A stretch of 64,000 bases of DNA, from assembly GCA_963708075.1 (NCBI GenBank), contig OY970194.1, positions 1,856,001 to 1,920,000 on the forward strand, given 5' to 3'. Origin of the DNA: Sedimentisphaerales bacterium (GTDB taxonomy: Bacteria > Planctomycetota > Phycisphaerae > Sedimentisphaerales > Anaerobacaceae). The position numbers and the translations under genes are program-made. Numbering within the stretch: position 1 is the stretch's first letter; the number at the start of each line of letters is the position of its first letter. Of this stretch, positions 26,981 through 42,385 are shown piece by piece. Under the pieces are notes generated by a model. That model did not search any database and was not told the origin of the DNA. It saw only the letters and a program-made list of their open reading frames with translations.

Positions 26981-27586
26981 ATGAGAATCGAGTCTCTGGA
27001 ACAGAGTGATGCGGTTTTGGTCGAGGCGGCCCAGCAAGGCCGGCTGGACAGCTTCGGCGCTCTTTACCAACGGTATCACAACCCCATTGTGGCCCTGGCG
27101 TACGCCCAGTTGGGCGACAAGCACTCGGCGGAAGATGCGGCACAAGAGGCTTTCGCCATCGCCTGCCGGGACCTGCGGTCGCTGCGGGACCGGGACAAGT
27201 TCGGGGCCTGGCTCGGCGGCATCTGTCGCAATGTGACAAAGCAGATGCTGCGAATCAAGACCCGAACCGCCCCCCTGCCGTGTAGCCCAGCGGCCCCCGG
27301 CTGGGTATCCGACGGGATCACCCCCGAGGGCGGGGGTGCTACAGGGTTGGGCCACGTGGAGCGGGAAGAGCAGTGGGACGCCGTGCGAAAGGCCGTATGG
27401 AAGCTGCCGGAAGCCGAGCGGGAACTGGTCGTGATGAGATACTTCAACGGGTTCTCACAAGCCAAGATCTCCCAGGTGCTGGATATGACCCCGGCGGCAG
27501 TCAACGGCCGGCTCACACGGGCAAAGCGTAGAATCGCAGAGTTGCTGGAACGTGATGGTTTCGGGAGTGAATCATGGGACGCGTAA
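26981..27586 (+). CDS. ECF sigma factor 1
   Basis: SDAVLVEAA, FGALYQRY, AEDAAQEAF, FGAWL (region 2); LPEAERELVVMRYFNGFSQAKIS..L..VNGRLTRA (region 4). Confidence 0.92.
   Translation: MRIESLEQSDAVLVEAAQQGRLDSFGALYQRYHNPIVALAYAQLGDKHSAEDAAQEAFAIACRDLRSLRDRDKFGAWLGGICRNVTKQMLRIKTRTAPLPCSPAAPGWVSDGITPEGGGATGLGHVEREEQWDAVRKAVWKLPEAERELVVMRYFNGFSQAKISQVLDMTPAAVNGRLTRAKRRIAELLERDGFGSESWDA
27281..27343. repeat. GTAG-type REP doublet inserted in frame in the sigma factor 1 linker
   Basis: TGTAGCCCAGCGGCCCCCGGCTGGG ... CACCCCCGAGGGCGGGGGTGCTACA; 63 nt bounded by TGTAGC/GCTACA. Confidence 0.7.
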
Positions 27587-28674
27587 ATGACGACAAATGG
27601 CTGGAAGAGGTATTGAACAAGGCCATCCACTCGGACGACACGCGACCCGACTTCGAGAAGTGGAAGGCGAGTCACCCCGAGGCCGTGGAGATGCTCACCT
27701 CGCGGACGCCGCAAATGCAGCGGCCGCATGTGATATGGAGAATGATCATGAACGCTACACTAGTGAAACTCGCGGCCGCCGCCGTGATTGTCATCGCAGC
27801 CATTGTCGGAATCGCCAAATTCACTCACAACCCCACGAACAATCCGGCCATTATCTCCGATGTCCTCGTGGACGCCAGTCAAAAGATCGTGGGGCCGGCG
27901 ACACACACGTTCGCCGACGGATCCGGCGTCAAGCTGGCTGAGGGCGCAAGCATCCGCGTCTTCCCCCCGGAATCACGGGCCGTACGAGGCTTCGAGCACG
28001 TCGCCGGCCGAATTGAAGTCACCGTCGCCAAGGGCAAAAGCGAGTTCGTCGTCAACAGCCGCTATGGCGACGTGAAGGCCCTCGGCACGCAGTTCACGAT
28101 GGACGTGATGGATGAGGTCGCCGCCAACACGAAAGAACGCGTGCGGTTGCTCGCCGTCAAGGTGACGGAAGGTTCCGTTGAAGTTCGCAGCCGCAAGGGG
28201 ATCACGACTCTGACCGAGAATCAGGACATCATCGTGGTGGCCAATGCCGCCCCGTACGACTTCAACAAGGATGAGAAGCTGCCGAAGGAGCTCAGGGCCC
28301 GGATTCAGTCGATGATCGACGCCCTGAAGGCCAAAGACGGCGCCGCCTGGGTCGCCAACTACAACCTGCCCTATCTGTACAAACTCGCCAAGGGCCAGGT
28401 CGCCTATGATCCGAACCTCTTCGGCGGGACCGCCGAGGATGCCCAGAACTTCCAGAAAGGACTCGGCAATGTCGCCAGTGCTGAGGAACTGGGCAAGATC
28501 GTGGCGTCGAGCCTCAACAGTGACGGCGGCGACATTTACATCACCGCGATCACGATAAGCAAGGCCGGCGACCATGCCATTGCCAAGTGCGTCAGTAAGA
28601 ACGGGAATCGCACGGTCGTCCACAGCCCCCAGTGGCACGACTTCGGCGGCGGCTGGTGGCAGATCGACGACTGA
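27574..28674 (+). CDS. Anti-sigma factor 1: short cytoplasmic domain, TM, FecR-like domain, C-terminal NTF2-like domain
   Basis: Overlaps the sigma 1 stop; KLAAAAVIVIAAIVGI TM; ADGSGVKL, FVVNSRYGDVKALGTQFTMDV, VKVTEGSVEV FecR motifs. Confidence 0.85.
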   Translation: MGRVNDDKWLEEVLNKAIHSDDTRPDFEKWKASHPEAVEMLTSRTPQMQRPHVIWRMIMNATLVKLAAAAVIVIAAIVGIAKFTHNPTNNPAIISDVLVDASQKIVGPATHTFADGSGVKLAEGASIRVFPPESRAVRGFEHVAGRIEVTVAKGKSEFVVNSRYGDVKALGTQFTMDVMDEVAANTKERVRLLAVKVTEGSVEVRSRKGITTLTENQDIIVVANAAPYDFNKDEKLPKELRARIQSMIDALKAKDGAAWVANYNLPYLYKLAKGQVAYDPNLFGGTAEDAQNFQKGLGNVASAEELGKIVASSLNSDGGDIYITAITISKAGDHAIAKCVSKNGNRTVVHSPQWHDFGGGWWQIDD

Positions 28675-28701
28675 TCGTCGCCGTGTACAATCGAGTCTCC
28701 G

Positions 28702-28731
28702 AGCCGGGCTTCTCTCAAGCCCGGCTTTTTT
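28702..28731 (+). terminator. Rho-independent terminator
   Basis: AGCCGGGCTT-ctctc-AAGCCCGGCT followed by a T run. Confidence 0.85.
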
Positions 28732-28838
28732 GTTGCGCCCGCTCCATGCGGGAATCGTTCCCGCCCTGGGAAAACAAAATGCAACTTTCTGAGGTCTCGT
28801 GCATTATGATAGGTGAAGACTGACTCCGGAGCAGTGCG

Positions 28839-29441
28839 ATGGCTGACGACGCGGTAGAGTGCAGCTTGGAATCCAGGACTGAGATGCTCGACGAGGACCA
28901 GACGCTGGTCTCTGCGGCCCGTCAGGACACAGAGGCGGCGGGCCGGCTCTACGACAAGTATTACGGCGAGATCCTTGGCTATATCTACCATTGCACGCTC
29001 AATCGCACAGTGACTGAGGACCTCACGTCGAACGTCTTTCTGGCAGCCTTCCGGCACCTGGATCGCTACAGATGGCAGCAGATTTCCTTCCGGCCGTGGC
29101 TGTACCGGATCGCCACGAACGAGGTGCGGATGCACTACCGCAGGCACAAGCGAATCCGGTCCGTCAGTCTTCAGCCGGAGCATGAGGCCCTCGCCGCTCC
29201 CGCGCCGCCGGATGGCGAAGGGCCGGCGGCCGAGGAAGAGTTTCGCCTGGTGCACAAGGCGCTGCTGCAACTGCGACTGAAGTATCGCACGGCGATCATC
29301 CTGCGGTACTTCGAGGACAAGACAATCGCCGAAATCGCGACGATCACCGGCAATAGAGAAGGCACGATCCGATCCCATCTGCACCGCGGGCTGGCCCAGT
29401 TACAGGAGATCCTGGTGCGTTGGGGCGTTCTGCCGGACTGA
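28839..29441 (+). CDS. ECF sigma factor 2
   Basis: EDQTLVSAA, LYDKYY, EDLTSNVFL, FRPWLYRIATNE; LRYFEDKTIAEIA...GTIRSHLHRG. Confidence 0.92.
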   Translation: MADDAVECSLESRTEMLDEDQTLVSAARQDTEAAGRLYDKYYGEILGYIYHCTLNRTVTEDLTSNVFLAAFRHLDRYRWQQISFRPWLYRIATNEVRMHYRRHKRIRSVSLQPEHEALAAPAPPDGEGPAAEEEFRLVHKALLQLRLKYRTAIILRYFEDKTIAEIATITGNREGTIRSHLHRGLAQLQEILVRWGVLPD

Positions 29442-29456
29442 AACAGGAACGAAACC

Positions 29457-30596
29457 ATGGACAACAACATCGAGAGAATTGAGCGGTACCTGGAGGGCAT
29501 TGTCCCGCCGGTGCATGAATCCGATCGGCATCGCCAACAGTTGCGCCGGCAGGTCCTCACGGGACTCGCAAGGAGAGTTCTTATGCCTGTGAATGCAAGA
29601 ACATGGAAAGTGGCCGCGGTCATTGCTGCCCTGGTGTGCACCGCCGCCGCGGCAACAGCCGTGGTCGGTGTGAAGATTCGTCAATACTATTTCGAGGGAC
29701 AGGACAAGGAGGGTACCTATTTCTTCCGCAGCGAGCCGGAGGCCATCCATGAGAAGACCTATGTGGACGCGAACGGTGTCACGGTGGGTGTGTCCGTGAC
29801 ATCAGGTGGCTCCGTCAGCATGAGGCCGGACAGTCCCGATGAAGCGAACGTCGAGCAGATGCAACGGGATCTGGCGGAAATCGAGATCCTGCGGCAGCAG
29901 GATGCCAGGGAACTGGTGGGCGTCCGTGACGTGAGCGTGAACGGCAACCCATGGAGGGTGTTCACGTTCAAGTACGTGCTTGCCGGCGGCCGGATTCATA
30001 CGGTGAATGAAGCCGACCCCGATGCAGAAAAGCCCGCGCCGCCCGACCAGAAGGACTTCGAGGAGGCCGCGCGTCAGCGAGCCCAGGGCATCAGGGACAT
30101 CGTCGGGGTGATCGACACGGAGGTCGATGGCCAGATGCATCGCACGCTGCAATGCCGGTACGTGCTCAGTGACGGCCGGGAGTTCGAGATGGGCGAGGCG
30201 GACTCCGCCCTGACGCCGCCGACGAAGACACTGAGCCCAGAGCAAATCGATGAGATCTGGCGTCTGAAAATACTGGGCCAGGCGGAGACCCTTGAGCCCG
30301 TCGAGACAGCCATGTACGGCAAGACCTTCGTCTTCGAAAGACACCTGTGCACGCTCGCCGATGGAACAGTCGCAACGCTCTCCGTCGGCAAACTCAAGGG
30401 CGCCGGCAAGAAGAACCTGACCGACGCGGATTGGAAGGAACTGCGTGCCCTCATCGACGCCAACGCCGGTGAATTCCTCGACACCTATGAGCAGGAGATC
30501 AGAGGCAAGGTCTTCGCCTTCGAGCGCAAGCGTTACACTCTGAGCGACGGCACCGAGGTCATCCGGGCCGACGGCACACCCAAAGACAGCCAATAA
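29457..30596 (+). CDS. Putative anti-sigma factor 2: HRQQLRR cytoplasmic helix, TM, four repeated extracytoplasmic units
   Basis: Directly follows sigma 2; KVAAVIAALVCTAAAATA TM; repeated Y(V/T)LSDG-type beta-hairpin motif. Confidence 0.75.
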   Translation: MDNNIERIERYLEGIVPPVHESDRHRQQLRRQVLTGLARRVLMPVNARTWKVAAVIAALVCTAAAATAVVGVKIRQYYFEGQDKEGTYFFRSEPEAIHEKTYVDANGVTVGVSVTSGGSVSMRPDSPDEANVEQMQRDLAEIEILRQQDARELVGVRDVSVNGNPWRVFTFKYVLAGGRIHTVNEADPDAEKPAPPDQKDFEEAARQRAQGIRDIVGVIDTEVDGQMHRTLQCRYVLSDGREFEMGEADSALTPPTKTLSPEQIDEIWRLKILGQAETLEPVETAMYGKTFVFERHLCTLADGTVATLSVGKLKGAGKKNLTDADWKELRALIDANAGEFLDTYEQEIRGKVFAFERKRYTLSDGTEVIRADGTPKDSQ

Positions 30597-30614
30597 ACCC
30601 ATTCCCGAGCGACC

Positions 30615-30653
30615 AGCGAGAGCGGCCATAGCGGAGGTCGCTCTCGCTTTCTT
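30615..30653 (+). terminator. Probable Rho-independent terminator
   Basis: AGCGAGAGCGGCC-loop-GGTCGCTCTCGCT followed by TTCTTGTTCTT. Confidence 0.7.
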
Positions 30654-30791
30654 GTTCTTGCCCCGCCCCTTTTCTCATCGCGAGCTCGCTCTTCCTCTCA
30701 AGAATCTGAAGAATTCCTGTGCCCCAGGCGGGTGTTCATTCGTGATAATAGGGAACAACGATCGTTGTGATGAGAGTAATGGCGTCCGCGA

Positions 30792-31328
30792 ATGATCGAA
30801 GATGAGCTGCTCAAACTGAGATTCAAGGCCGGCAGCATAGACGCGCTGCAGCGGATCTATGAGAAGTACCGCGACTACCTGCTGACGCTGGCGATGGCGT
30901 TGTTGAATGACGCCGCCACGGCCGAGGACGTCGTGCACGATGTGTTCGTCTCCTTCGCGCAGTCCGGCTCACGGTTCCGTCTCTACGGCAGCCTGCGGGC
31001 CTACCTGGCCACCTGCGTGGTCAACCGGATCCGCGACCGGATGCGCAGCCGCAAGCGCCAAGGGCAGACGCTCGACGAACAGATGCCTCTGGAGTCGGAC
31101 TTCGATCCGCCGGACCAGCGTGTCCTGTCCGACGAGCGGTCCCGGCTGGTCGCCCGGGCCCTGGCCCGACTGCCGGACGAGCAGCGGGAAGTCATCGCCC
31201 TGCACCTGAACGGGCAACTGAAGCTCCGGGAAATCGCGCGGCTTCAGGAGGTGCCGCTGACAACGGTGCGCGGCAGGTATCGACATGGAATCGAAAGACT
31301 GCGGTCAATCCTGAATGGGAGGCTCTGA
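30792..31328 (+). CDS. ECF sigma factor 3
   Basis: MIEDELLK, RIYEKYRD, AEDVVHDVFVSFA, SLRAYLATCVVN; LPDEQREVIALH...REIA...TVRGRYRHG. Confidence 0.92.
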   Translation: MIEDELLKLRFKAGSIDALQRIYEKYRDYLLTLAMALLNDAATAEDVVHDVFVSFAQSGSRFRLYGSLRAYLATCVVNRIRDRMRSRKRQGQTLDEQMPLESDFDPPDQRVLSDERSRLVARALARLPDEQREVIALHLNGQLKLREIARLQEVPLTTVRGRYRHGIERLRSILNGRL

Positions 31329-31329
31329 C

Positions 31330-32448
31330 ATGAAACCGGCAGAGGAGATAGAGAGGATCATCAGAGGAATGTCCTTCCGGGCAGGCGATCGAATGGGGCA
31401 GCGACTCTGGGCTGATGCCGCGAAGGCACAGAATGAGTCCGAAAGCGCGAAACGGGTCCCAGACCCGAAGAATACAGGGAGATGGATTATGAAATATCCG
31501 ATCACGAAATTGGCCGCCGCGGCAGCCATAATAACAGCAGCAGTGCTGGGCTTGAACATTGTGGGTGGGCCGGGCATGGCAACCGTTGCGCTGGCGGACG
31601 TAGCAAAGAAGATTGAACAAACAAAGAACTGTGTCTTCAAAAAGACTACAACCGTGTCCTCTGAAGATGGCGTCACTAACGCATTCGATTCACTGGTATA
31701 TTATACCGAAAACGCCGTGAGGGATGATGTCTACGACAATGCGAAGATAATCAGTCAGGTGTATGTCAAATTCCCGGATGGGGTCGTCGTCGCGGTAGAC
31801 CACAAAAGCAGAGTATTCAGGAAGATAAACCTCGCGGATGAGGATATTGAGAGACTGTCTCCGGTAAGCCCAAGGAATCTTGTCGATCTGATCCTGTCAA
31901 AAGGAGAGTACAAGAAGCTGGGCAGAAAGACGGTGGACGGAGTTCTTTCAGAAGGCTTCGAATTTGACGACACAAGAGCAATGCTCAGCATGGATAAAGA
32001 CCAGATCGAGAATATCGTTACGCGTCTTTGGGTCGATGTGAGCACTGATCTGCCGATCCGTGCTGAGGTTGACTGCATTCTGACTGACAACGCAAAGGCT
32101 CGTGTGGTGATGTTCGATCCCCAGTGGAATGTTGAGCTGGAATCCGATTTCTTTGAGCCGAAGATACCGGCCGGCTACGTGGAACCTGAGCAGCGTGGTG
32201 TTATAGGGATCGATCTTGAGAATTGGCCGGCGCTCAAGGTTGTCCCCGGCATGGCCGCAGAAAAGGCGGGAGTCAAGAGTGGAGACGTTGTCCTAAGATT
32301 CAACGGCAACAGCATCTCGCATATTGAATCTTCAAGCGACGCCCTGAGTCTATTGTCCGGCAAGGTTGGGGAAAAGGTCGCGCTTACCGTAAAGCGAGGG
32401 GAACAAATCCTTACCTTTGAGATTGAAAGAGCACCTGCGCCAAAATGA
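31330..32448 (+). CDS. Putative anti-sigma factor 3: TM, LolA-like domain, C-terminal PDZ
   Basis: KLAAAAAIITAAVLGL TM; LGRKTVDGV, RLWVDVSTDLPIRAE, FFEPKIPAGY; GVIGI...GMAAEKAGVKSGDVVLRFNG PDZ. Confidence 0.82.
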   Translation: MKPAEEIERIIRGMSFRAGDRMGQRLWADAAKAQNESESAKRVPDPKNTGRWIMKYPITKLAAAAAIITAAVLGLNIVGGPGMATVALADVAKKIEQTKNCVFKKTTTVSSEDGVTNAFDSLVYYTENAVRDDVYDNAKIISQVYVKFPDGVVVAVDHKSRVFRKINLADEDIERLSPVSPRNLVDLILSKGEYKKLGRKTVDGVLSEGFEFDDTRAMLSMDKDQIENIVTRLWVDVSTDLPIRAEVDCILTDNAKARVVMFDPQWNVELESDFFEPKIPAGYVEPEQRGVIGIDLENWPALKVVPGMAAEKAGVKSGDVVLRFNGNSISHIESSSDALSLLSGKVGEKVALTVKRGEQILTFEIERAPAPK

Positions 32449-32679
32449 GCGGACGGTTTCAGAAGATTGACGGGCCATGCGGAGGTAGAGATTATGCACC
32501 GCGCATCAAGTACTGTACCTATTCATGACCGCGTATCTGGGTATGGAAGCCATAACGGCGCACACGCAGGCCTGGCACCACGACAAGAGGAAGACCAGAA
32601 CTGACGATGCCGGCGGTTCCGCGGTCGTGTCCACCGAACCTCCGTGAGGAAACGGCCCGCCTCAATGACGCCATCACCC

Positions 32680-32713
32680 AAGGCCAAGCCTCCACCGCCT
32701 GGCCTTTTCTTTT
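32680..32713 (+). terminator. Possible Rho-independent terminator
   Basis: AAGGCCA...TGGCCTT followed by TTCTTTT. Confidence 0.45.
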
Positions 32714-32810
32714 GCGCGGGGAAAATCCACCGGCTACTATATACTAAGGACACACGTCGGACGTGGTACATGTGAGAACGGCCGTTTTTTGAGCCTGTGA
32801 GTGAGTGGAC

Positions 32811-33350
32811 ATGCTGGAAGACGAACTGCTCAAGTGGAAATTCCGGCGGGGCAGCCAAGAGGCGCTGGCGAGGATCTATGAGAAGTACCTCGACTCAATG
32901 CTGACTCTTGCGGTGGGCCTGCTGCATGACGTGAGCGAGGCGCAGGACGTCGTGCACGATGTCTTCGTCTCCTTCGCGAAATCCGCAGGCAACTTTCAGA
33001 TACGGGGCAGCCTCGGCGGCTACCTGGCCACCAGCGTCGTCAATCGCATACGGGACCAGAAGAGGCGATTGCGAAGGCAGAGCCGTAGAGATGCGATACC
33101 TTGCGTCTCCAACGACCCGCCGGAGCCTGACCAGACAGTCATCTTCACAGAGCAGGCGAGTCGCCTCAACGAGGCAGTTGCCCAACTGCCGGACGATCAG
33201 CGCGAGGTAGTGTTACTCCGACTCACGGCCGGCATGAAGTTCCGCGATATCGCAAAGCTGCAGCAAATCTCAATCAACACGGTCCAGGGCCGTTACCGGT
33301 ACGGCTTGGATAAGCTTCGGTCCATGTTGAACGGCGAGGTGGACGAATGA
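32811..33350 (+). CDS. ECF sigma factor 4 (paralog of sigma 3)
   Basis: MLEDELLK, RIYEKY, AQDVVHDVFVSFA, LPDDQREVVLLR, MKFRDIA, TVQGRYRYGLDKLRS. Confidence 0.92.
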   Translation: MLEDELLKWKFRRGSQEALARIYEKYLDSMLTLAVGLLHDVSEAQDVVHDVFVSFAKSAGNFQIRGSLGGYLATSVVNRIRDQKRRLRRQSRRDAIPCVSNDPPEPDQTVIFTEQASRLNEAVAQLPDDQREVVLLRLTAGMKFRDIAKLQQISINTVQGRYRYGLDKLRSMLNGEVDE

Positions 33351-35152
33351 AACCCAAAGACAAGGTGGAAGAGATAATCCAAAAGAGACTGCGTTTCACC
33401 GCCGGCTCGACACTGCGCCGCCGATTTCTGGCTGATGTTCTGCACGCACAAGAGGAATCCAGACAAACAGATCCGGCTCTTCACCGGGCCGGCATAGGGA
33501 GAATCATCATGAGAAGTCCATTTATGAAACCGTTCTCCGTCGCCGCCGTTATTGCGATGGCGGTCCTTTCAATCACCTTTTGGGACAAGTGGTCCCCTTC
33601 GGCATACGCCATAGCGCAGACCTATGAGGCGCTCCAGAATGTCCGCTTCCTGCACATCGTACAACGTGATGCAGCAAGGCAGATTACGGATGAACGATGG
33701 ATCGAGATCGGCGACAATGGGTACCAGCTCCGCTACCGGCAGGACAATCCCGCCCCGGTGAATTTCGGCGCCATTGAGGACGGCGAATCCACGGCGGTCT
33801 ATCGCCATGACAAGAAAGCGGTGATCATCTACGACCGCAAAGACCAGCAGTTCCAGTGGGTGGGTCCGCTGGGCGAAATGTTCGAGAATCTTCGCCAGGA
33901 AGGCAAGATCCTCCAGGATAACGCTGAGTACAAGGGCAGGCCGGCTCACAAAGTCTGGTGGCCTTTCCTGAGCGCCGAGTGCTACGTCGATCCCGAGACG
34001 AAGCTGCCCTTCGCCGTCGGAGACACGGAGCTTAGTTACGAGGAGCCTCCGGCGGGAACCTTCGAGATCGTCATTCCGGAAGGCTACGCCGTGCTCGACA
34101 AACGCCCCGGCGTTCCCACAGGGCCGACGCCGGCATGGCTCCTGGAGGACGAAAGCGAAGCAAAGAAGAAGGATGAATGCTTCAACCAGGGAGTCCGTGC
34201 CCTTGTCAGCGGGGACTATGCAAGAGCCGTGGAACAGCTCGAACAAGCCCTTGGCAGCGACAGTTGGGCCGCCTTTTGGCTCGGCAGCGCCTACTACGGA
34301 CTCGGCAAGTATGATCTGGCTATCAAGAACTACAACAAGCTATACGAAGCATTTGGCGGCAATGGGACGGAGGCAGTGCCCTACTGCAGCTACGCCCGGG
34401 GCTTAGCCTACGCGAGAAGCGGTGACATGGAAGCGGCAGAGAAGGATTTCCATGCCTGTCTGCCCGCGATGATCAGAACACTGCAAACCCCCTCCGGCGG
34501 GGCCATGTTCGAGTATGCGGATAACCCTCTTATTCGATTCGGTCGGTATCAGCCCGGCGAACGTGAGATCGTCATCAAGATGATCAATCGCCTCCGGCTC
34601 ATCACCGGACAGGATTTCGGCTATGATCCCAACGCCACGGACGCGGAGAACGAGCCGGCCGTTTCCGCCTGGGAGCAATGGTTCAAGAACGACGGGCAGA
34701 TCCGGTTTACACCCGACGCCAAGCCCCTTCCCATCCTGGCCGAGTGGATCTGTAAGATGGGCTGGGGACGCAAACCGAACCAGGAAATCGCGTCGCGATA
34801 CCGAAGGGAATGGCTGGAGCAGATCACATCCCCCACGGCCTGGCAGAAGACTGGATTTGCCCTCTATGATGCCAGGCGGTACGACGACGCGCTGGCGGCG
34901 TTCGAGAGGATGCAGGAGACGGCCGGCGATGATCCACATACCCAGACAATAGCGACCATCTGGCAGGGACACATGCTGGACCTCCTGGGAAGAAGGAACC
35001 AGGCGGTCGCCAAGTATCGAAGAATCGCAGACGCCGGACTGACGTCGGGCACAACGCACAGCAATTATGGCCTCTCCTACAGCTTCAGCTCCTACGCCCG
35101 GGAACGGATGGACACACCCTTCACACGCATCGAAAACGCGTATGAAGACTGA
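33347..35152 (+). CDS. Putative anti-sigma factor 4: TM, LolA-like domain, TPR repeats
   Basis: ATGA overlap with sigma 4; SVAAVIAMAVLSITFW TM then SAYA; YVDPETKLP; TPR motifs AFWLGSAYYGLGKYDLAIKNY and YARGLAYARSGD. Confidence 0.82.
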   Translation: MKPKDKVEEIIQKRLRFTAGSTLRRRFLADVLHAQEESRQTDPALHRAGIGRIIMRSPFMKPFSVAAVIAMAVLSITFWDKWSPSAYAIAQTYEALQNVRFLHIVQRDAARQITDERWIEIGDNGYQLRYRQDNPAPVNFGAIEDGESTAVYRHDKKAVIIYDRKDQQFQWVGPLGEMFENLRQEGKILQDNAEYKGRPAHKVWWPFLSAECYVDPETKLPFAVGDTELSYEEPPAGTFEIVIPEGYAVLDKRPGVPTGPTPAWLLEDESEAKKKDECFNQGVRALVSGDYARAVEQLEQALGSDSWAAFWLGSAYYGLGKYDLAIKNYNKLYEAFGGNGTEAVPYCSYARGLAYARSGDMEAAEKDFHACLPAMIRTLQTPSGGAMFEYADNPLIRFGRYQPGEREIVIKMINRLRLITGQDFGYDPNATDAENEPAVSAWEQWFKNDGQIRFTPDAKPLPILAEWICKMGWGRKPNQEIASRYRREWLEQITSPTAWQKTGFALYDARRYDDALAAFERMQETAGDDPHTQTIATIWQGHMLDLLGRRNQAVAKYRRIADAGLTSGTTHSNYGLSYSFSSYARERMDTPFTRIENAYED

Positions 35153-35500
35153 AATGTAGAATCCGATCAACGCATCGAGGGAAAGACCGGGGATGGCATG
35201 GCCGGGCCTGTTTGGGCTCGGCCCCTCTTATCCACCCTCGACCCACGAGGGGACGGTCCTGCCTTCTGCGCCATCTACACGCGATCCAGTGAAGACGCCG
35301 GCCCGTTAAGTTGGGACGCACAAGTCTTCTCGGGACAGGGCGGCACCTGGAAGAAGCTGTTCAGCATGGGCAGCACCGGCTTCGCGCGGAGAAAGCACCT
35401 TCCCACCTACCCTTAAAGGTGGGAAAATGGTACAATAGAACCATTGAGGCAGGGATCGTGCCTGGCTGGAGTATGTTTCTCTTTCGGTTGGAGGATATCC

Positions 35501-38197
35501 GTGAGGTGCTTACAGAGTCTCGTCACTCCGTGTGAAAGCCCATGTATCTGGTCACGTCCAAGGGTGATATGGTCAGTAGCTTCGCTCGCGTGCCTGTTCA
35601 TACCGGCCGCATCCGCGTTGGCGGCGATCACCATAGACGGCGTCACGGACAAGAAGGTGTACGCGAATCTCGTCTCGTTTACGGTCCGCTCGGAGGCAGG
35701 GTACGACTATACGGCGGAGTTGAATGGGGAGTCGGTGGCTGTGGGCGTCCCCGTAGAGGTCAACGAGCCGCAATACTATGAACTGAATGTGGAAAGGCGG
35801 CAGAAGTCGTCCGGGGCGCAGGAGAGCCAACTGGTTCGATTCATCGTCCGGGCGACCGACCGGGGCAACAGCGAATGGGGGCTTCCCCCCTGGGTCCCCT
35901 ATCCGGTGATAGACTCGGCCGCGGCGGAGTTCACTGGGGCCCGGCTTATAGTTGTCACACCTGCTAAATTCCCGGTAGGACTCGAAATTCCCGTCATCGC
36001 CCGCATGGAGGACGAGTCCGGGAAGCGAGTTGGTGTCAACGGCGTTGTCACGGCCGATGGCTTCGAGAGATACCCGCTACAACTGCTGCGCGGGGTTGGC
36101 TCCGTCTTTCTGCCGCCAGCGGTTGAACCAGGCGTCATCTCTTATGCCGCCCAGGTCCACTCGCTGCAAACGCCGAAGGATATTGTGATTGAGAGCGTCA
36201 CGAACTGGCAGACGGTCTCGACAGATATTGTCGCTTCGACCGACTGGGGCAAGAACGCCCGCATTCGTGTCATGGGCGATGCCGATGGCGCACTGACGAT
36301 CGCGCTGGGCGCCACGTTGACCATCGGCAGTGGCAGCGTGATCGTAGTCGATCCCGATGTCGAGATTACGGTGGATGGTCATATCGCAGTGAACGGGACC
36401 GTGCAGCAGCCCGTCGTCTTCACCAGCCGGGATCGAACCGAGCCCTGGGGTGGGTTCATCTTTGAGAAGAGCACATCGCGAGGCGAATTCACCGGTACGA
36501 TCCTGACCGGCAGCGGCGCAGACCCAGATTGGTTCGATAACAACCCTGGGCACGGCCACAGCCATCGCAGCGAGCAACCCCTGGTCTTCGTATCCAATGG
36601 AGCCCGCGTAACGTTGACCGACTGCTATCTCACGGAGAACAGCGGGCAGGGAGGACACGGCGAGGGCGGCTACCTCACAATGACGCGGTGCCTGATCCAG
36701 AAATGCATCAGCGCCGGCCAGTATAATGGCGGAGCGGTGACCTTCAGTGACTGCGCACTGATCGAGTTCCCCTCGGCGACAGCCCCCTTTGAAGACAACG
36801 ACAACGATGCCCTCTACCTCACAGGCGGGGCGCATTCATTGAAGGACTGCCTCGTCGGCTGGGCTCTGGATGACGGGATCGACGCCGGGTCGGGCTCAAA
36901 CGGCTCAGTCACGGTCGATCACTGCTGGATCGAATCAACCTATCATGAGGCGCTGGCCTGGTCGGAGCAAGGGACTCGCTCCGCCAGCGACACGGTCACG
37001 ATGAACTGCGGACAGGGAATCGAGTGCGGGTTCGGCTCGCCCAAAGTGGATACGGTGCATTGCCTCAGCACGGGCAACGTCATCGGGGCCCGCTTCGGCG
37101 ACAACTATGACTGGAGCTACAACGGCTTTCTGAAAATCCGCGATTCGCTCTTGCTGTTCAACAAGCGCGACATCTGGGGCCGGGCGTGGGACAACTGGGA
37201 GGTGCATCAATCCCAGATGGATATCAAGGACTGCTACGTCACCACCGCTTACGCTGATTTTCCCGGCAACTGGCTTTGGGACCCTCAGGCTGATCCGAAT
37301 CAGCTCGCTGAGCTGGTGCCGTTCCTGCCCTGCCCTGCCGATACAGTCGGCATCGGCTTTGCAGCGTGGGAGGATGCCGTCGATCTGACCTCGCTGTCCA
37401 AGGGCATTCCCGTCCGCCTGAGCACCTTCACGACTAAGCCGGTCTCGGTGGACTACTCGATTGATACAGCAAAGAAGCAGCTTGCCGGGGGCACGCTGCA
37501 CTTTGTGCCAGGGGAGACTGTGAAGCAGATCGTCTTCGACATCCCGTCCGACCAGGACCTCTGCCAGATCCACGTGACGCTGGGCAATCCGGTCAATGCC
37601 GAGCTGACGGGATATCAACGATTGAGCCACAAAGGAATGTGCGGGACGGTTGTGCCATTGGTCCGTGAAGGCGATCAATGGCGATACTTCAAGGGCACGC
37701 AGGAGCCTCCGGCAACGTGGAATGCCCTGGCATTCGATGACAGCACGTGGCTCACCGGGCCCACGCCCATTGGGTACGAAACGAGCAGCGGCTATGAAAA
37801 GCGGATTGCCACGAATCTCGGCGACATGCGGAACAAGTACATCAGCGTGTACGCCCGCCGGACCTTCTCTGTGGACGATCCATCGCAACTGACCGCCCTG
37901 CTCCTCGCGGTGGATGTTGACGACGGCTACATCGCCTATATCAACGGCGTCCGGGTCAGTGCCCTGGCCGCGCCGGCTTCCCCCAAGTACGATCAGGCGG
38001 CCACTGCCAACCGGGAGGCTTGCTGCGGTACCGGCACGCCGACGGGCCCCTGCCCGCCCGCACAGATCGACCTGAGCAAGTACATCAAGGACCTGGTCCC
38101 TGGAGAGAACGTGCTGGCCGTCCAGGTCCACAACACATCCCTGTCCAGCTCGGACCTGATCTTCATCCCCGAGTTATCCGGCGTGTTCGCTCCGTAG
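35501..38197 (+). CDS. Large exported protein: beta-helix region, Calx-beta-like domain, C-terminal galactose-binding-like domain
   Basis: GGAGG before GTG 35501; signal peptide ending ALA-AITI; LTIALGATLTIGSG..NGTVQQPVVFTS, DNDALYL, DDGIDAG; GTLHFVPGETVKQI; WRYFKG...FDDSTWLTG...DDGYIAYING...GENVLAVQVHN. Confidence 0.75.
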   Translation: MRCLQSLVTPCESPCIWSRPRVIWSVASLACLFIPAASALAAITIDGVTDKKVYANLVSFTVRSEAGYDYTAELNGESVAVGVPVEVNEPQYYELNVERRQKSSGAQESQLVRFIVRATDRGNSEWGLPPWVPYPVIDSAAAEFTGARLIVVTPAKFPVGLEIPVIARMEDESGKRVGVNGVVTADGFERYPLQLLRGVGSVFLPPAVEPGVISYAAQVHSLQTPKDIVIESVTNWQTVSTDIVASTDWGKNARIRVMGDADGALTIALGATLTIGSGSVIVVDPDVEITVDGHIAVNGTVQQPVVFTSRDRTEPWGGFIFEKSTSRGEFTGTILTGSGADPDWFDNNPGHGHSHRSEQPLVFVSNGARVTLTDCYLTENSGQGGHGEGGYLTMTRCLIQKCISAGQYNGGAVTFSDCALIEFPSATAPFEDNDNDALYLTGGAHSLKDCLVGWALDDGIDAGSGSNGSVTVDHCWIESTYHEALAWSEQGTRSASDTVTMNCGQGIECGFGSPKVDTVHCLSTGNVIGARFGDNYDWSYNGFLKIRDSLLLFNKRDIWGRAWDNWEVHQSQMDIKDCYVTTAYADFPGNWLWDPQADPNQLAELVPFLPCPADTVGIGFAAWEDAVDLTSLSKGIPVRLSTFTTKPVSVDYSIDTAKKQLAGGTLHFVPGETVKQIVFDIPSDQDLCQIHVTLGNPVNAELTGYQRLSHKGMCGTVVPLVREGDQWRYFKGTQEPPATWNALAFDDSTWLTGPTPIGYETSSGYEKRIATNLGDMRNKYISVYARRTFSVDDPSQLTALLLAVDVDDGYIAYINGVRVSALAAPASPKYDQAATANREACCGTGTPTGPCPPAQIDLSKYIKDLVPGENVLAVQVHNTSLSSSDLIFIPELSGVFAP

Positions 38198-38302
38198 GGG
38201 CGGGTTTCCAACCCGCCCGCACAGTGGTTGCCACGATTTTTCTGTAGACGGGGCCTCGCTGTTCGTCTTGATTGTGTAAGGGCAGGCTCCAAACCTGCCC
38301 GC
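38194..38302 (+). repeat. Two GTAG-type REP palindromes; the first supplies the TAG stop of the upstream gene
   Basis: GTAGGGGCGGGTTTCCAACCCGCCC (38194) and GTAAGGGCAGGCTCCAAACCTGCCC (38276). Confidence 0.75.
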
Positions 38303-38315
38303 TCAGGAGCTCCGA

Positions 38316-38843
38316 TTGAACGATCCAGCAGACGAAAGCGTGGTCGGTGCCTGCCGGGGTGACGACAATGCGGCGTACGCGATACTCGTGCGAAGGCATT
38401 ACCGGCACGTGTTTGCCTTGTGCCTCGGCATACTCGCGAATGTTCACGATGCCGAGGACGTGGCTCAGGAAACCATGTTGAAAGGGCTTCTGAGCCTTCG
38501 CCGACTGGCCAAGCCGGAACAGTTTGAGTCATGGATTCTGCGGATTGCAAGAAACCTGTGCATCGACCTGCTCCGGCGACGCAAGCGCACGAAGACATCG
38601 CCCGTCGAAGCTGAGACTATCCCGACGCAGAAGGCACAGGAGAACCACGATCTCGAAGGCGCCATTCGCCGGCTGCCTCGGGAGCTTCGTCTGCCTCTGA
38701 CGCTGTTCTACTTCGAGCACAAAGACGCCGGGAGCATCGCGAGGAAGCTGGATATCTCGCCGTCCCTGGTCTACGAGAGAATCCGGACGGCCCGAAAGGA
38801 GCTGCATCGGCTGCTGACCGAAAGGGGTACCCATGAGTCATGA
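38316..38843 (+). CDS. ECF sigma factor 5
   Basis: AGGAG before TTG; DESVVGAC, AEDVAQET, FESWILRIARNLCIDLLRRR, LPRELRLPLTLFYFE. Confidence 0.9.
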   Translation: MNDPADESVVGACRGDDNAAYAILVRRHYRHVFALCLGILANVHDAEDVAQETMLKGLLSLRRLAKPEQFESWILRIARNLCIDLLRRRKRTKTSPVEAETIPTQKAQENHDLEGAIRRLPRELRLPLTLFYFEHKDAGSIARKLDISPSLVYERIRTARKELHRLLTERGTHES

Positions 38844-40380
38844 TTGCCACGCATTCAGGGACCAGATCGCGGACTTCGTCACCGGCATCCTGCCGGAGCC
38901 GGACAGCCGCAGGTTGCAGGACCATTTGAGCACCTGCGCCCCCTGCCGTGACTATCTGCACGCCCTGAAGCAGGAAGATGCCTCGTTGACCGAGTACATC
39001 GCAGGGATCGACGGGGACATGGCACATCGTCAAGAGCGCGCGCTCCAAGTGATCGAGTGTTCCCGCACGAAGGAGAAGACAGACACCACCTCCGTGTGGA
39101 CCGAGATCATGAGAAATCGATACAGCAGACTGGCGACGGCCGCAGTGATTCTCATATTGACCGGCATCTCCATCATTCTCCTGGACAGAATGACATCGTC
39201 GGCCTACGCCTTACATCAGACAGTTGAAGCCTTCAAAAGCATTCGGTTCCTGCACATCGTCGAGCGTGATGAGGCTGGTGGTATCGAGAATGAACGCTGG
39301 ATTGAGGTCGGCCCGGATGGCCGGCAAGTCCGCTACCGGCAGGACAAGCCACCGCACATCCTCGTGATCGACGACGGTGAATCCATAGCCCGCTACCACA
39401 ATCACGGGAATACCATGACCATTTATCATAGCCCCGAGATGCGGTACGAGTGGATCAGGCCTTTGGGACGTGCTTTCGAGAACCTGCTCCGGGCAGGGCT
39501 GATTCTTGAGGAAGATGCCGCCTATCATGACCGGGTTGTCCACAAGGTTTGGTGGCCGGCGATGCGCGGCGTGTGTTACGTGGACCCCGCAAGCAGGCTG
39601 CCTGTCGCCATTGAGGATATGGAGTTGAGCTATGAAGAGCCGCCGGCCGGGACTTTCGAGATCGTCGTTCCCCAAGGTTATACCATTGTCGATGATACTC
39701 AACAGAGCGATTTCTATGCTGCCGTGGAGCTGATTCAACCTGCGACGCCGCTCATGGAAATCGTCAACCGGGACGAGGTCGTCGGACTCCATCGCACGGG
39801 TCCGCGCAGCTATGCGGGGGACCTGGATATAGAGATCACATGCAATACCGACATCACGTGGGCTCTTTCCGTCACGAAAACAGGTTTGGTCCAAGGCGAC
39901 TACTCGTGTTCGATCGACAAGTGGGACATGGCGCCGCCCGGCGGAATCGCAACAGTGGCTGTGGCACTCACGGAAGTGCAGGCGGAGAACGCCCCGAGAG
40001 GCACTCAGGTCGCCCTTGTGACACTGCGCGTCAAACCGAGGCCTGAGCCGATGAATGATGCCCGTGCTCTGAGGACGCTTGGACTTGCGCTTTATGACGC
40101 GAAACGCTACGAGGAAGCCTTGACCGCATTCGAGAGAATAGAGCAGCAAGACAACGCTGACCAGGAGGAACTGGCCATGGCAATCATCTGGCAGGGACAC
40201 ATGTTGGATCTCCTTGACAGGAGAGATGAAGCCATCGGGAGATACGGGAGAGTCGTTGGCATGGGCCTGGAAGGCGGCGTGCATCAGGGCCAATACGACC
40301 TCCGCTACGAGTTCACACCCTACGCCAAAGAGAGAATGATCACGCCCTTCACTCGCGTCGAAAGACTGGACAGTAAATGA
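38833..40380 (+). CDS. Anti-sigma factor 5: zinc-binding ZAS (zf-HC2) domain, TM, LolA-like domain, Ig-like middle, TPR
   Basis: CHAFRDQIADF...HLSTCAPC HxxxCxxC; RLATAAVILILTGISIILL TM then SAYA; C-terminal TPR GLALYDAKRYEEALTAFE. Confidence 0.87.
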   Translation: MSHDCHAFRDQIADFVTGILPEPDSRRLQDHLSTCAPCRDYLHALKQEDASLTEYIAGIDGDMAHRQERALQVIECSRTKEKTDTTSVWTEIMRNRYSRLATAAVILILTGISIILLDRMTSSAYALHQTVEAFKSIRFLHIVERDEAGGIENERWIEVGPDGRQVRYRQDKPPHILVIDDGESIARYHNHGNTMTIYHSPEMRYEWIRPLGRAFENLLRAGLILEEDAAYHDRVVHKVWWPAMRGVCYVDPASRLPVAIEDMELSYEEPPAGTFEIVVPQGYTIVDDTQQSDFYAAVELIQPATPLMEIVNRDEVVGLHRTGPRSYAGDLDIEITCNTDITWALSVTKTGLVQGDYSCSIDKWDMAPPGGIATVAVALTEVQAENAPRGTQVALVTLRVKPRPEPMNDARALRTLGLALYDAKRYEEALTAFERIEQQDNADQEELAMAIIWQGHMLDLLDRRDEAIGRYGRVVGMGLEGGVHQGQYDLRYEFTPYAKERMITPFTRVERLDSK

Positions 40381-40606
40381 GTCCCCACTGTACGTGGCAC
40401 CGTCGTATTGTCCGCTGCTAAGCATTGTGAAACCATGGGAACGCAACTCGTCATGCCAGGCAAGGAAGAAAATCGGTCGCCCCTTATAGCCCGACCTGTT
40501 TCGCACGCAACATCAACAAATCTGCCTTTCCCGGTAGAGGAATCGACCGTCTTCATGCGTTATATTGGTGAATGTTGATGGTTCTGACGTCAGGTCACCA
40601 ACGATG

Positions 40607-41153
40607 ATGCTCGAAGATCGATATCTCGTCTGGCGGCTCAAGCAAGGCAGCCCGCGGGCCTTGTGCCGGATCTACAACCGGTACGAGAACCGACCTGCTC
40701 ACGCTGGCCAGGAGCCTGCTCGGCCGAACAGACCAGGCGGAGGATGTTCTGCAGGACGTGTTCGTCCGGCTCATCGAGTCCATCGATACCTTCGAGCTCA
40801 CGGGCAGCCTGAAAGGCTATCTCGTCACGTGCGTGGCAAATCGCGCACGGGACTACCTGCGGAAAGACCGTCGCCGCACAGGCGAGCCGATGGAAGCGGC
40901 GTACGCCGTCGCGTCGCAGCAGAGCGGGCCGCTCCAAGAGGTCATCGCCGATGAGCAGCAGCAACGGCTGACAGCGGCCCTGGCCGAGCTGCCCTACGAG
41001 CAGCGGGAAGCCGTCCTGCTCCACCTGCAGGCGGGCCTGAAGTTCCGCGAGATCGCCCGTGTGCAGGGCGTGGCCGCCAAGACGGCGTGGAGCCGGTACC
41101 GGTATGGATTGGACAGACTGCGGTCTTTATTGAATGGTCAGGCGGAAACATGA
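40607..41153 (+). CDS. ECF sigma factor 6 (apparent +1 frameshift near 40688)
   Basis: MLEDRYLVWRLKQGSPRALCRIYNRY in one frame continues as DLLTLARSLL...AEDVLQDVFVRL...LPYEQREAVLLH...SRYRYGLDRLRSLL in the next; paralog of sigmas 3 and 4. Confidence 0.85.
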
Positions 41154-42385
41154 TTCGTGCAAGAGATGTTCAGAAGCTGGTGAAAGACCTGCATCATCCA
41201 GCCAGTGTCCAGACGCATGACAGAATTGTCGGCCACCTGCTCGCTGTGCTGAGACGAACGAAACCACAAGCGGCTGGCCAACAGCCGGCTGTAAGGAGAA
41301 CCTTCATGAGAAGTCCGATTATGAAACTCGCGGCAGCGGCCGGCCTCATTCTGGCCGTGATGCTGCCCGTCACTTTGCTTATAAAGTCAACCCCCACTGC
41401 CTCTGCCGCCGTGATCTTTCAACAGGCGGCCGAAGCCATGGAGAAGCTGAAATCTTTTCACATTCAGGTGGAGATGCGCACTCTCCCGCACGACAATTTC
41501 GCTTTGATCGTACTGGATCACGATTTCGTCCCCATCGATTTCTGGAAGCAATTCACCGATGATCCGCGGGGCAAATGGCGACTGGAAGAGCCGGGCCGGG
41601 TCGTCGTCATGGACGGCGGCATGTCCACGATGCTCATCAAACACCTCAACGAGGTCCACGAGGTCGCCGACCCGAATCCGGAGCGGTACTGGGACGAGTG
41701 CCTCGTTGAAGTAGACAAGGTCACGGAGCGGGAGGCCAGGAACGCATCGGAGCACCCGGCGGAGTTCTCCTTGTATCGCGAACAAGGGGAGGACGGCCGC
41801 GAAGAGATCATCATCTCTGTGGAGGTCCAGTCACGCGTGCCGGAGACGGACCACCTCCGAGACAGGTACATCAAGAATTCCGATCACCTGAAGGTTTACC
41901 GGTTTGATGCCCAGACGAAGCTGCTGGAGAACCTTGAGATCTACATGCATCACAAGGGCCAGGACATCCTGGTATTGCGACTGGTGCAGGCTGAGTATGA
42001 TATCGAGCTCGATCCGGCCCTGTTCCGCCTTGATCTGCCCGAGGACGTCATTCGGACTGTGCCTCTGGCCGTCCTGCCGGACAACGCCAGGTACGAACAG
42101 ATGACGCCGGAAGAGGCGGCGACGGCCTTCTTCACGGCCTGTGCTAAGGAGGACTGGGACGAACTGGTCAAGTTCCTGGGCCAGACCGGTGTCCCGCAAC
42201 TGATGAAGGACTACCTCGGCGGGCTGGAGATCATCTCGATCGGAGAGGCGTTCCAATCCGCCAACTATCCGGGCTGGTTCGTGCCCTATGAGGTCAAGCT
42301 CAAGTCCGGCCAGATCAAGAAACACAATCTCGCCATTCGCAAGGACAACCCGGCCAATCGTTTCGAGTATGACGGCGGGATATAG
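41150..42385 (+). CDS. Putative anti-sigma factor 6: TM, LolA-like domain, small C-terminal alpha/beta domain
   Basis: ATGA overlap with sigma 6; KLAAAAGLILAVMLPVTLL TM then TASA; RFDAQTKLLE, LDPALFRLDLPED. Confidence 0.8.
   Translation: MIRARDVQKLVKDLHHPASVQTHDRIVGHLLAVLRRTKPQAAGQQPAVRRTFMRSPIMKLAAAAGLILAVMLPVTLLIKSTPTASAAVIFQQAAEAMEKLKSFHIQVEMRTLPHDNFALIVLDHDFVPIDFWKQFTDDPRGKWRLEEPGRVVVMDGGMSTMLIKHLNEVHEVADPNPERYWDECLVEVDKVTEREARNASEHPAEFSLYREQGEDGREEIIISVEVQSRVPETDHLRDRYIKNSDHLKVYRFDAQTKLLENLEIYMHHKGQDILVLRLVQAEYDIELDPALFRLDLPEDVIRTVPLAVLPDNARYEQMTPEEAATAFFTACAKEDWDELVKFLGQTGVPQLMKDYLGGLEIISIGEAFQSANYPGWFVPYEVKLKSGQIKKHNLAIRKDNPANRFEYDGGI

Follow-up and report, generated by a model that had tools for sequence, protein, structure and literature searches.

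The stretch of DNA analysed here, called the window, comprises 64,000 nucleotides (nt) of contig OY970194.1 (assembly GCA_963708075.1, positions 1,856,001 to 1,920,000 of the forward strand) from a Sedimentisphaerales bacterium, the genome of which is one 7.5-Mb contig with a G+C content of 60.4%. At 26981-42385 it holds six co-oriented gene pairs, in each of which a gene for an extracytoplasmic function (ECF) sigma factor is followed by one for a single-pass anti-sigma factor, the anti-sigma gene lying directly downstream of its sigma gene in 6/6 pairs. The subject of this study is a second, in-frame ATG inside each of the anti-sigma genes, just before the codons of the membrane anchor, which in all copies except one is preceded at 7 nt by a Shine-Dalgarno (SD) sequence. 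Judged from sequence comparison, it is probable (about 0.7) that this nested site is a working start, which yields an isoform of the anti-sigma factor with the sensor and without the sigma-binding head.

The six gene pairs and their nested sites

The genes of the six pairs, with the predicted parts of the anti-sigma factors including the transmembrane (TM) helix, are as follows.

s1, 26981..27586, + strand: ECF sigma factor (Pfam Sigma70_r2 2.2e-13, Sigma70_r4_2 5.1e-13)
a1, 27574..28674, + strand: anti-sigma factor with a 58-residue head, TM helix and FecR-type sensor (Pfam FecR 1e-08); its start overlaps the end of s1
s2, 28839..29441, + strand: ECF sigma factor (sigma profile match 3.7e-50)
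a2, 29457..30596, + strand: anti-sigma factor with a 42-residue head, TM helix and a sensor without family match in Pfam or NCBIfam; its TM module is divergent
s3, 30792..31328, + strand: ECF sigma factor (Pfam Sigma70_r2 2.9e-14)
a3, 31315..32448, + strand: anti-sigma factor with a head of the MKPxExIE family (conserved part from 31330), TM helix and a sensor ending in a PDZ domain (PDZ_6 8.4e-11)
s4, 32805..33350, + strand: ECF sigma factor (sigma profile 2.1e-52), 54% identical to s3
a4, 33347..35152, + strand: anti-sigma factor with a 54-residue head (ATGA overlap with the s4 stop), TM helix, LolA-like domain (from a structure model) and TPR repeats (TPR_2 1.6e-14)
s5, 38316..38843, + strand: ECF sigma factor (sigma profile 2.9e-45)
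a5, 38833..40380, + strand: anti-sigma factor with a 92-residue zf-HC2 head (Pfam 3.8e-07; NCBIfam anti-sigma factor 1.4e-06), TM helix, LolA-like domain and TPR repeats
s6, 40601..41153, + strand: ECF sigma factor read in two frames, the frame changing near 40685
a6, 41150..42385, + strand: anti-sigma factor with a 52-residue head (ATGA overlap with the s6 stop), TM helix and a sensor without family match in Pfam or NCBIfam

All six anti-sigma factors have one TM helix, seen as a single uncharged run of 16-29 residues, and then an extracytoplasmic domain. The head before the helix has 92 residues in a5 and 42-58 residues in the other five. Several anti-sigma start codons overlap the sigma stop codon (ATGA), and many are preceded by a GGAG or GAGG of their own, located within the last part of the sigma gene. 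Genome-wide, in 21 of the 23 listed copies the head starts within a range that runs from 17 nt upstream to 15 nt downstream of the end of the sigma open reading frame (ORF); of the remaining two, one is placed at +200 and one is without a paired sigma ORF. The nested sites within these genes read as follows.

a1, nested start, + strand: GGAG 27737-27740, 7-nt spacer, ATG 27748-27750 (tGGAG-aatgatc-ATG); uncharged run 27769-27816
a2, nested start, + strand: GGAG 29572-29575, ATG 29583-29585 (aaGGAG-agttctt-ATG); uncharged run 29610-29672
a3, nested start, + strand: GGAG 31478-31481, ATG 31489-31491 (agGGAG-atggatt-ATG); uncharged run 31510-31596; VALA|D at 31588-31596
a4, nested start, + strand: GGAG 33498-33501, ATG 33509-33511 (agGGAG-aatcatc-ATG); uncharged run 33530-33583; SAYA|I at 33602-33610
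a5, degenerate site, + strand: GGAC (TGG ACC) 39098-39101, ATG 39109-39111 (tGGAc-cgagatc-ATG); SAYA|L at 39202-39210
a6, nested start, + strand: GGAG 41295-41298, ATG 41306-41308 (taaGGAG-aaccttc-ATG); uncharged run 41327-41383; TASA|A at 41399-41407

These sequences are exactly those given in the first-pass annotation of this DNA: all ATGs are in frame, the spacing is 7 nt, and each site stands directly before the single hydrophobic segment of its gene. The a5 site is the sole copy in the window that has lost the SD sequence, and it keeps the ATG. The four ordinary gene starts that had been named for comparison also hold, with GGAG at 7 and 8 nt upstream of 5788 and 13578 (+ strand) and at 6 and 8 nt upstream of 17912 and 26666 (- strand). 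AGA, the Arg codon found in most of these sites, had been expected to be rare at this G+C content, and it is: AGA makes up 5.4% and AGG 9.2% of the Arg codons in 3702 long ORFs of the source genome.

The start signals of the genome as a whole can be compared with the nested sites. Before the first ATG of 3323 long ORFs, GGAG is found most often at a spacing of 7 nt (184 cases), then at 8 nt (156) and 6 nt (127), and the 7-nt spacing of the nested sites is therefore the genome-wide SD optimum. Among internal in-frame ATGs of the same genome, GGAG at a spacing of 7 is present in only 37 of 23309. The 3' end of the 16S rRNA reads ...CACCTCCTTTCT, with a canonical CCTCC tail to which the SD sequence at the nested sites is complementary.

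Codon-level conservation of the nested site

Searching the source genome with a profile of the juxtamembrane module gave 26 copies; a2 is not matched by this profile, yet it carries GGAG-N7-ATG. GGAG lies 5-9 nt upstream in 22 of the 23 ATG-bearing modules of this genome, against 1.84 expected from the residues and the genomic codon usage. Before the Arg, at position -4, stands in every case TGG, GGG or AGG, for Trp, Gly or Arg, three residues that have only NGG in common; the codon that follows it is AGA or AGG, with a single AGT (Ser).

The module is present in 26 of the 31 related genomes searched, and all 32 module matches in the 30 loci fetched from them, other families of the order included, read NGG AGR/AGT nnn nnn ATG. 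A motif-independent sample was assembled from 79 loci fetched by similarity to sigma factor s3, from which the downstream TM protein was taken, giving 112 distinct modules. The relatives found by sigma similarity are metagenome-assembled genomes (MAGs), many of them labelled Sedimentisphaerales or Phycisphaerae/Phycisphaerales and many others Pirellulales. Among the 92 ATG-bearing modules of other genomes, GGAG stands at 5-9 nt in 84, where 20.9 would be expected; a further 6 carry AGGA or GAGG, and the other 2 carry none of these. At codon position -3, Arg is encoded by AGR in 75/75 cases among the ATG-bearing modules (35% elsewhere in the same ORFs) and Ser by AGY in 7/7 (background 37%); at -4, Gly is GGG in 11/13 (background 13.5%) and Arg is NGG in 25/26 (background 30%). 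GGAG is kept over the residue pairs W-R, G-R, R-R, W-S, G-S and R-S, as well as in shifted-register variants that encode L-E (TTG GAG, spacing 6) and G-D (GGG AGA T, spacing 8). The excess of AGA and GGAG over synonymous usage, proposed in the first-pass annotation from six genes, is thus found in other genomes too, Arg never being CGN where the ATG is present; its invariant Met and spacing proved nearly so, with Met almost invariant in the module and the spacing 7 nt, or 6/8 in a shifted codon frame.

These counts bear on the explanation that selection acts on a protein motif, (W/G/R)-R-x-I-M, on the cytoplasmic side of the anchor, which would serve topology, protease recognition or sigma release and for which the codons would be incidental. 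Basic residues before the TM helix fit the positive-inside rule, and Ile at -1 (87/92 ATG-bearing modules) and the Met are conserved as residues. However, a motif of this kind gives no account of why W, G and R should share only NGG, why Ser at -3 should always be AGY and Arg always AGR in the presence of the ATG, or why GGAG should persist in the L-E and G-D variants, the residues of which are quite unlike the motif; moreover, modules without the ATG keep the Arg but often encode it as CGN. Selection on the protein motif is therefore very unlikely to be what maintains the site.

The information content of the site is punctate, reaching 1.4-2.0 bits over GGAG and 2.0 bits over the ATG, and falling to 0.1-0.8 bits at the spacer positions -6 to -4; in the source genome, positions upstream of -12 score at most 0.5 bits. 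A conserved Leu and a conserved Ala downstream of the site vary in their codons, and therefore synonymous sites in this region are not frozen.

The SD sequence and the ATG appear to behave as one unit. In the 20 modules that were aligned without an ATG, two of which (L056|822 and L091|1046) are shifted in the alignment by one codon and do in fact have one, GGAG is kept in 3, a partial SD in 3 and none in 14. Arg retained without the ATG is often encoded by CGN, and of the copies in the source genome with GTG for ATG, two read TGG CGG and one TGG AGA. Such a GTG was considered as a hint of continued use as a start and was rejected, since a Met codon can become a Val codon in one step only by the change of ATG to GTG, which is therefore uninformative. 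A FastTree phylogeny of 138 neighbouring sigma factors offered 12 independent pairs that differ in the ATG, and GGAG changed in the same way in about 10 of these, in the opposite way in 0 and not at all in about 2 (median p 0.002). Taken together, the sequence comparisons indicate nucleotide-level conservation of the nested site throughout the order, joint change of its parts, and selection on it.

The range of the site was surveyed in 301 genomes of the phylum, with only about 19 candidates per genome scored. Matches at E <=1e-5 came from 8 genomes, mostly of the order to which the window itself belongs, and one weaker match, L132, from another family of the phylum, reads GGG AGG ACG ATT ATG. 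A similar site is found in a second family, unrelated to the anti-sigma factors: two neighbouring BlaR1/M56-type transducers of the source genome (388203-391511 and 392306-395251) carry AGG AGR nnn nnn ATG before their last TM helix. Both match Pfam Peptidase_M56 (5.5e-63 and 4.8e-67) and have a PD40 beta-propeller sensor. In relatives of these transducers the ATG is present in 21/22, and GGAG lies at 7 nt in 17/21; the four ATG-bearing relatives without GGAG are short forms of about 550 residues.

The surroundings of the nested site also differ from the rest of the gene. In 22 copies of the source genome, the G+C content is 0.36-0.48 from -15 to +21 compared with about 0.6 in the flanks, and the window from -25 to +20 folds at -6.6 kcal/mol compared with -10.4 kcal/mol further into the same genes (p 7e-6). 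Given the residues, codons -5 to +7 of the source-genome copies (n=240) would be expected to include 62.4 that end in A or T, and they include 138; in the flanks (n=515) the expectation is 122.6 and the count 161. The second codon is AAA in 55 of the 92 modules from other genomes. On these sequence criteria the site, AT-rich and weakly folded with AAA as its second codon, has the features of start regions.

An SD-like sequence at this place might instead make elongating ribosomes pause before the anchor, which would aid co-translational targeting or folding of the head and would require no start. In the available portion of the study by Fluman et al. (PMC4359368), SD-like elements in E. coli membrane-protein genes are proposed to program targeting pauses, and the nested sites resemble them in being SD-like motifs within the coding sequence of membrane proteins near a TM helix; their location directly before a TM helix in two unrelated families would also suit this explanation. 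The pauses described in that portion lie at codons 16-36 or before TM2, are absent where at least 80 residues precede TM1, are not enriched in proteins with long N-terminal tails and need no start codon, whereas the nested sites lie at codons 42-98, before TM1, and depend on the ATG, which puts them outside the described classes (PMC4359368). A pause would not call for an ATG at 7 nt, but here ATG and GGAG are kept and lost together, and both the sequence context, rich in AT and weakly folded, and the use of AAA as second codon are characteristics of start regions. Pausing without initiation is, on this evidence, a decidedly improbable explanation.

The long product and the predicted short product

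The heads show coding periodicity (GC1/2/3 = 0.65/0.42/0.68). Zinc-finger motifs are present in four of them, as zf-HC2 in a5 and as HxxxCxxC in three others, and a conserved family of 53 residues, MKPxExIEKxI...SAxMDxR (D.R), comprises the heads at 31330-31488 and 33347-33508 and those of loci L051-L129. The short heads have no match in Pfam or NCBIfam. A complex model of s3 with the a3 head scored 0.83, compared with 0.00 for the best control, a level reached by 116 of 157 solved complexes and by 2 of 215 mismatched pairs; the score may reflect likeness to solved sigma/anti-sigma complexes, which is likeness and not binding. The runs agree in at least 92% of contacts, the partner has a predicted local distance difference test (pLDDT) value of at least 76, and head residues 3-38 are modelled between sigma regions 2 and 4. 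Since coding periodicity, zinc-finger motifs, a conserved family and the predicted fit to the sigma factor coincide, the head appears to be real, and hence the long product as well.

The same evidence speaks to the converse explanation, in which translation begins solely at the internal ATG, the head is an untranslated open frame and the genes encode exported proteins beside sigma genes. Other sites of the genome with GGAG-N7-ATG and a hydrophobic segment do look like true starts of exported proteins with an open upstream frame (47/69). However, the heads begin at or overlap the sigma stop, many with their own SD; they have the periodicity, the zf-HC2 motifs or conserved family and the predicted sigma binding just described; and among the 126 module hits the frame is open for at least 45 codons upstream in 125, with one that runs off the end of its locus. 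It is scarcely credible that the internal ATG is the only start.

The working of a nested start beside the first one can be proposed as follows. Translation from the first ATG, which often overlaps the sigma stop, would give the full anti-sigma factor, with its cytoplasmic sigma-binding head, one TM helix and extracytoplasmic sensor. The candidate nested initiation site, made up of GGAG(A), a 7-nt AT-rich spacer and the in-frame ATG, would give a headless protein, which lacks all head residues and would begin with M-K/R-x-x-x-x-K and continue into the hydrophobic segment and sensor of the long form. This protein would enter the membrane or the periplasm, where it could not hold the sigma factor; it would either stay anchored or be cut at a conserved AxA-like site, and it may affect signalling as a partner or decoy of the full-length sensor or by protecting it, in a manner comparable to the separately encoded RseB.

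In the predicted short product, M-K/R-x4-K is followed by an uncharged run with a median of 19-20 residues. The run has 16-21 residues in five of the window genes and 29 in a3, and is longer than the signal peptides at true gene starts of this genome. After it come a stretch rich in Gly, Ser, Thr and Pro and then an AxA-like site (SAYA|, VVWA|, IALA|) at 31-38 residues from the Met. A crude rule of our own gives an AxA-like site with a score of at least 5 in 77/91 modules as compared with 6/87 control stretches. A tail resembling that of a signal peptide, as earlier described for these genes, is thus real in the sense that a3, a4, a5 and a6 have an AxA-like site after the hydrophobic run. The sites in the window, VALA|D, SAYA|I, SAYA|L and TASA|A, follow this run at a distance of 8-12 residues.

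The first extracytoplasmic domain of a4 (33638-34192) and a5 (39220-39774) has no Pfam match. A model of this type of domain (pLDDT 87.6; predicted template-modelling score 0.78) was compared with known structures by Foldseek, which gave LolA (8chx_A) at E 4.1e-06 and 25 chains at E <=0.001, nearly all of them LolA. The match to RseB was weaker (3m4w_D, E 8e-03), and TM-scores were moderate, only 0.33-0.45. In the RseA-RseB system of E. coli sigma-E, a LolA-like periplasmic protein, RseB, accompanies a single-pass anti-sigma factor and is the product of a separate gene. The a4/a5-type sensor would resemble that system in its predicted LolA/RseB-like fold, with PDB entries 3m4w and 2v43 among the fold matches at the TM-scores just given. 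Unlike RseB, the LolA-like domain here is part of the anti-sigma factor itself, and a free or headless copy would share its gene.

Exchange of parts is seen as well. In two loci from MAGs, L051:3523-4282 and L052:3523-4267, a sigma factor 88% and 87% identical to s3, respectively, is followed by an anti-sigma gene with an a3-type head and an a2-type sensor; therefore, sensors appear to have been exchanged at or near the TM junction. Two kinds of head, zf-HC2 and the short family, share the same TM module. The exchange fits the idea of the first-pass annotation that ribosome-binding site (RBS), ATG, anchor and sensor form a self-contained unit, as far as can be seen from the sequences. It would likewise suit an explanation in which the site is a cassette junction: a "TM plus sensor" unit, moved between heads by recombination, would have brought its inherited RBS and start along, and the site would persist through repeated recombination or recent ancestry without being translated today; the shared TM module under two kinds of head points in the same direction. 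However, the conservation is punctate and no homology tract is seen, since the spacer from -6 to -4 and neighbouring synonymous sites vary; the signal survives across the order despite changed residues and decays once the ATG is lost; and a stand-alone "TM plus sensor" gene was found neither in the source genome nor among the 126 module hits in 609 kb of loci. An untranslated junction is for these reasons improbable.

A related proposal made earlier for this DNA, that the RBS is a relic of the fusion of heads with genes for exported proteins, is unsupported as far as a neutral relic is meant, because the signal is selected and the 126 hits include no stand-alone form. The signals of selection instead suggest that the start of the unit is still in use. 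Of the accompanying proposal that each anti-sigma gene has a nested start, the part that concerns a functional site gains support from the Arg codons, the Met, the spacing and the joint loss of SD and ATG; from the same sequence features we infer that the short protein is made.

Several points weigh against a working nested start, in addition to the two misaligned rows noted above. Use of SD sequences is not general in this genome, as GGAG stands 5-9 nt before the first ATG in about 616 of 3323 long ORFs, and it is therefore neither necessary nor sufficient for initiation. The a5 site in the window and 8 of the 92 ATG-bearing modules elsewhere are without a full GGAG, so that the feature is dispensable. 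Most of the counts ignore relatedness, for which the one tree-based test corrects; the tree of that test is one of sigma genes and, since sensors are swapped, need not be the history of the anti-sigma genes. The AxA-like site is also kept in some modules without the ATG and is therefore independent of the nested start; it may belong to the sensor domain or, going by the accessible parts of the work on RsiV and RsiP, it may be a signal-peptidase site of that kind, in either isoform. Finally, by its sequence the hydrophobic run looks more like an anchor than like a cleavable signal peptide.

A more far-reaching and tentative idea, which we hold to be doubtful, is that at least two unrelated families of transducers, the ECF anti-sigma factors and the BlaR1/M56-type proteins, are two genes in one. 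Each would contain a nested, complete secretory pre-protein with RBS, ATG, a signal of n-, h- and c-regions and an AxA site, and its hydrophobic segment would be an anchor in the long isoform and cleavable in the short one; the freed periplasmic sensor would then bind or shield the anchored sensor and set the threshold for proteolysis. If this were true, no separate gene of the RseB type would be needed.

Related systems and the surroundings of the pairs

In-frame internal starts that give N-terminally truncated isoforms are established, and the nearest case in signalling, within the part of the literature covered, is ArcB-C, the product of an in-frame internal start in E. coli arcB that was mapped, with others, by means of retapamulin (Meydan et al., 10.1101/520783). 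As in the accessible account of ArcB-C, the nested sites here combine an SD-like sequence and an in-frame start at a domain boundary of a membrane signalling gene, would give an N-truncated second product and are preserved among species. ArcB-C, as described there, is a soluble cytoplasmic domain encoded by one gene and was shown experimentally, whereas the short product here is predicted to have the anchor and the outer sensor, and its site is kept in about 20 paralogues per genome across an order.

Isoforms from alternative start codons are also described for sigma-R/sigma-R' and for SigH (ECF12) (PMC7826278). These are likewise pairs of isoforms within an ECF module, with regulatory consequences; in the excerpt consulted, the alternative starts there lie in the sigma factor and the longer form is unstable and conditional, whereas here they lie in the anti-sigma factor and the short form would lose the sigma-binding part. 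In the anti-sigma factors RsiV and RsiP, finally, the site-1 cut is made by signal peptidase (PMC4183432, PMC6066255, PMC8844934). They share with the present proteins a single-pass topology and may share a signal-peptidase-type site shortly after the TM helix, which here would be the AxA-like site of 77/91 modules. Unlike the present genes, they have no internal start described in the sections of those papers considered, their taxa and sensor domains are unrelated, and the cleavage proposed here is putative. A literature search on internal or alternative starts and isoforms of anti-sigma factors and on planctomycete ECF systems, which left most subscription journals outside its reach, found no description of such an anti-sigma arrangement. 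One apparent match, PMC9546586, was rejected, as it concerns mCherry.

ECF sigma/anti-sigma pairs are among the commonest signalling devices of bacteria and are modelled as one sigma factor and one anti-sigma factor. If the nested start works, more than 100 such switches of this lineage would include a conserved third player with the same sensor and anchor and no grip on the sigma factor, which would provide a simple and testable route to threshold setting or buffering. Given the same signal in the BlaR1-type transducers, "sensor-only" isoforms may be a wider design principle. The site also has a bearing on annotation, since gene finders that give weight to a strong RBS in choosing the start codon may pick the short form and so overlook the sigma-binding head.

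Some further features of the locus concern the transcription of the pairs. A scan of 16 kb limited to promoters of the sigma-70 type, ECF-type promoters not being included, gave 4 internal sites compared with 4.9 expected, none of them in a head. Strong terminator-like hairpins stand directly after a1 (28701-28727) and a2 (30615-30648), and therefore those two pairs look like separate operons. In s6, the first ~29 residues (MMLEDRYLVWRL...) are read in one frame and the remainder in another, which may represent a frameshift, a pseudogene or an assembly error; a6 is intact. Between pairs 4 and 5, at 35444-38197, lies the gene of a right-handed beta-helix protein of 917 residues (Pfam Beta_helix 4.8e-06), which could be a target of one of the sigma factors.

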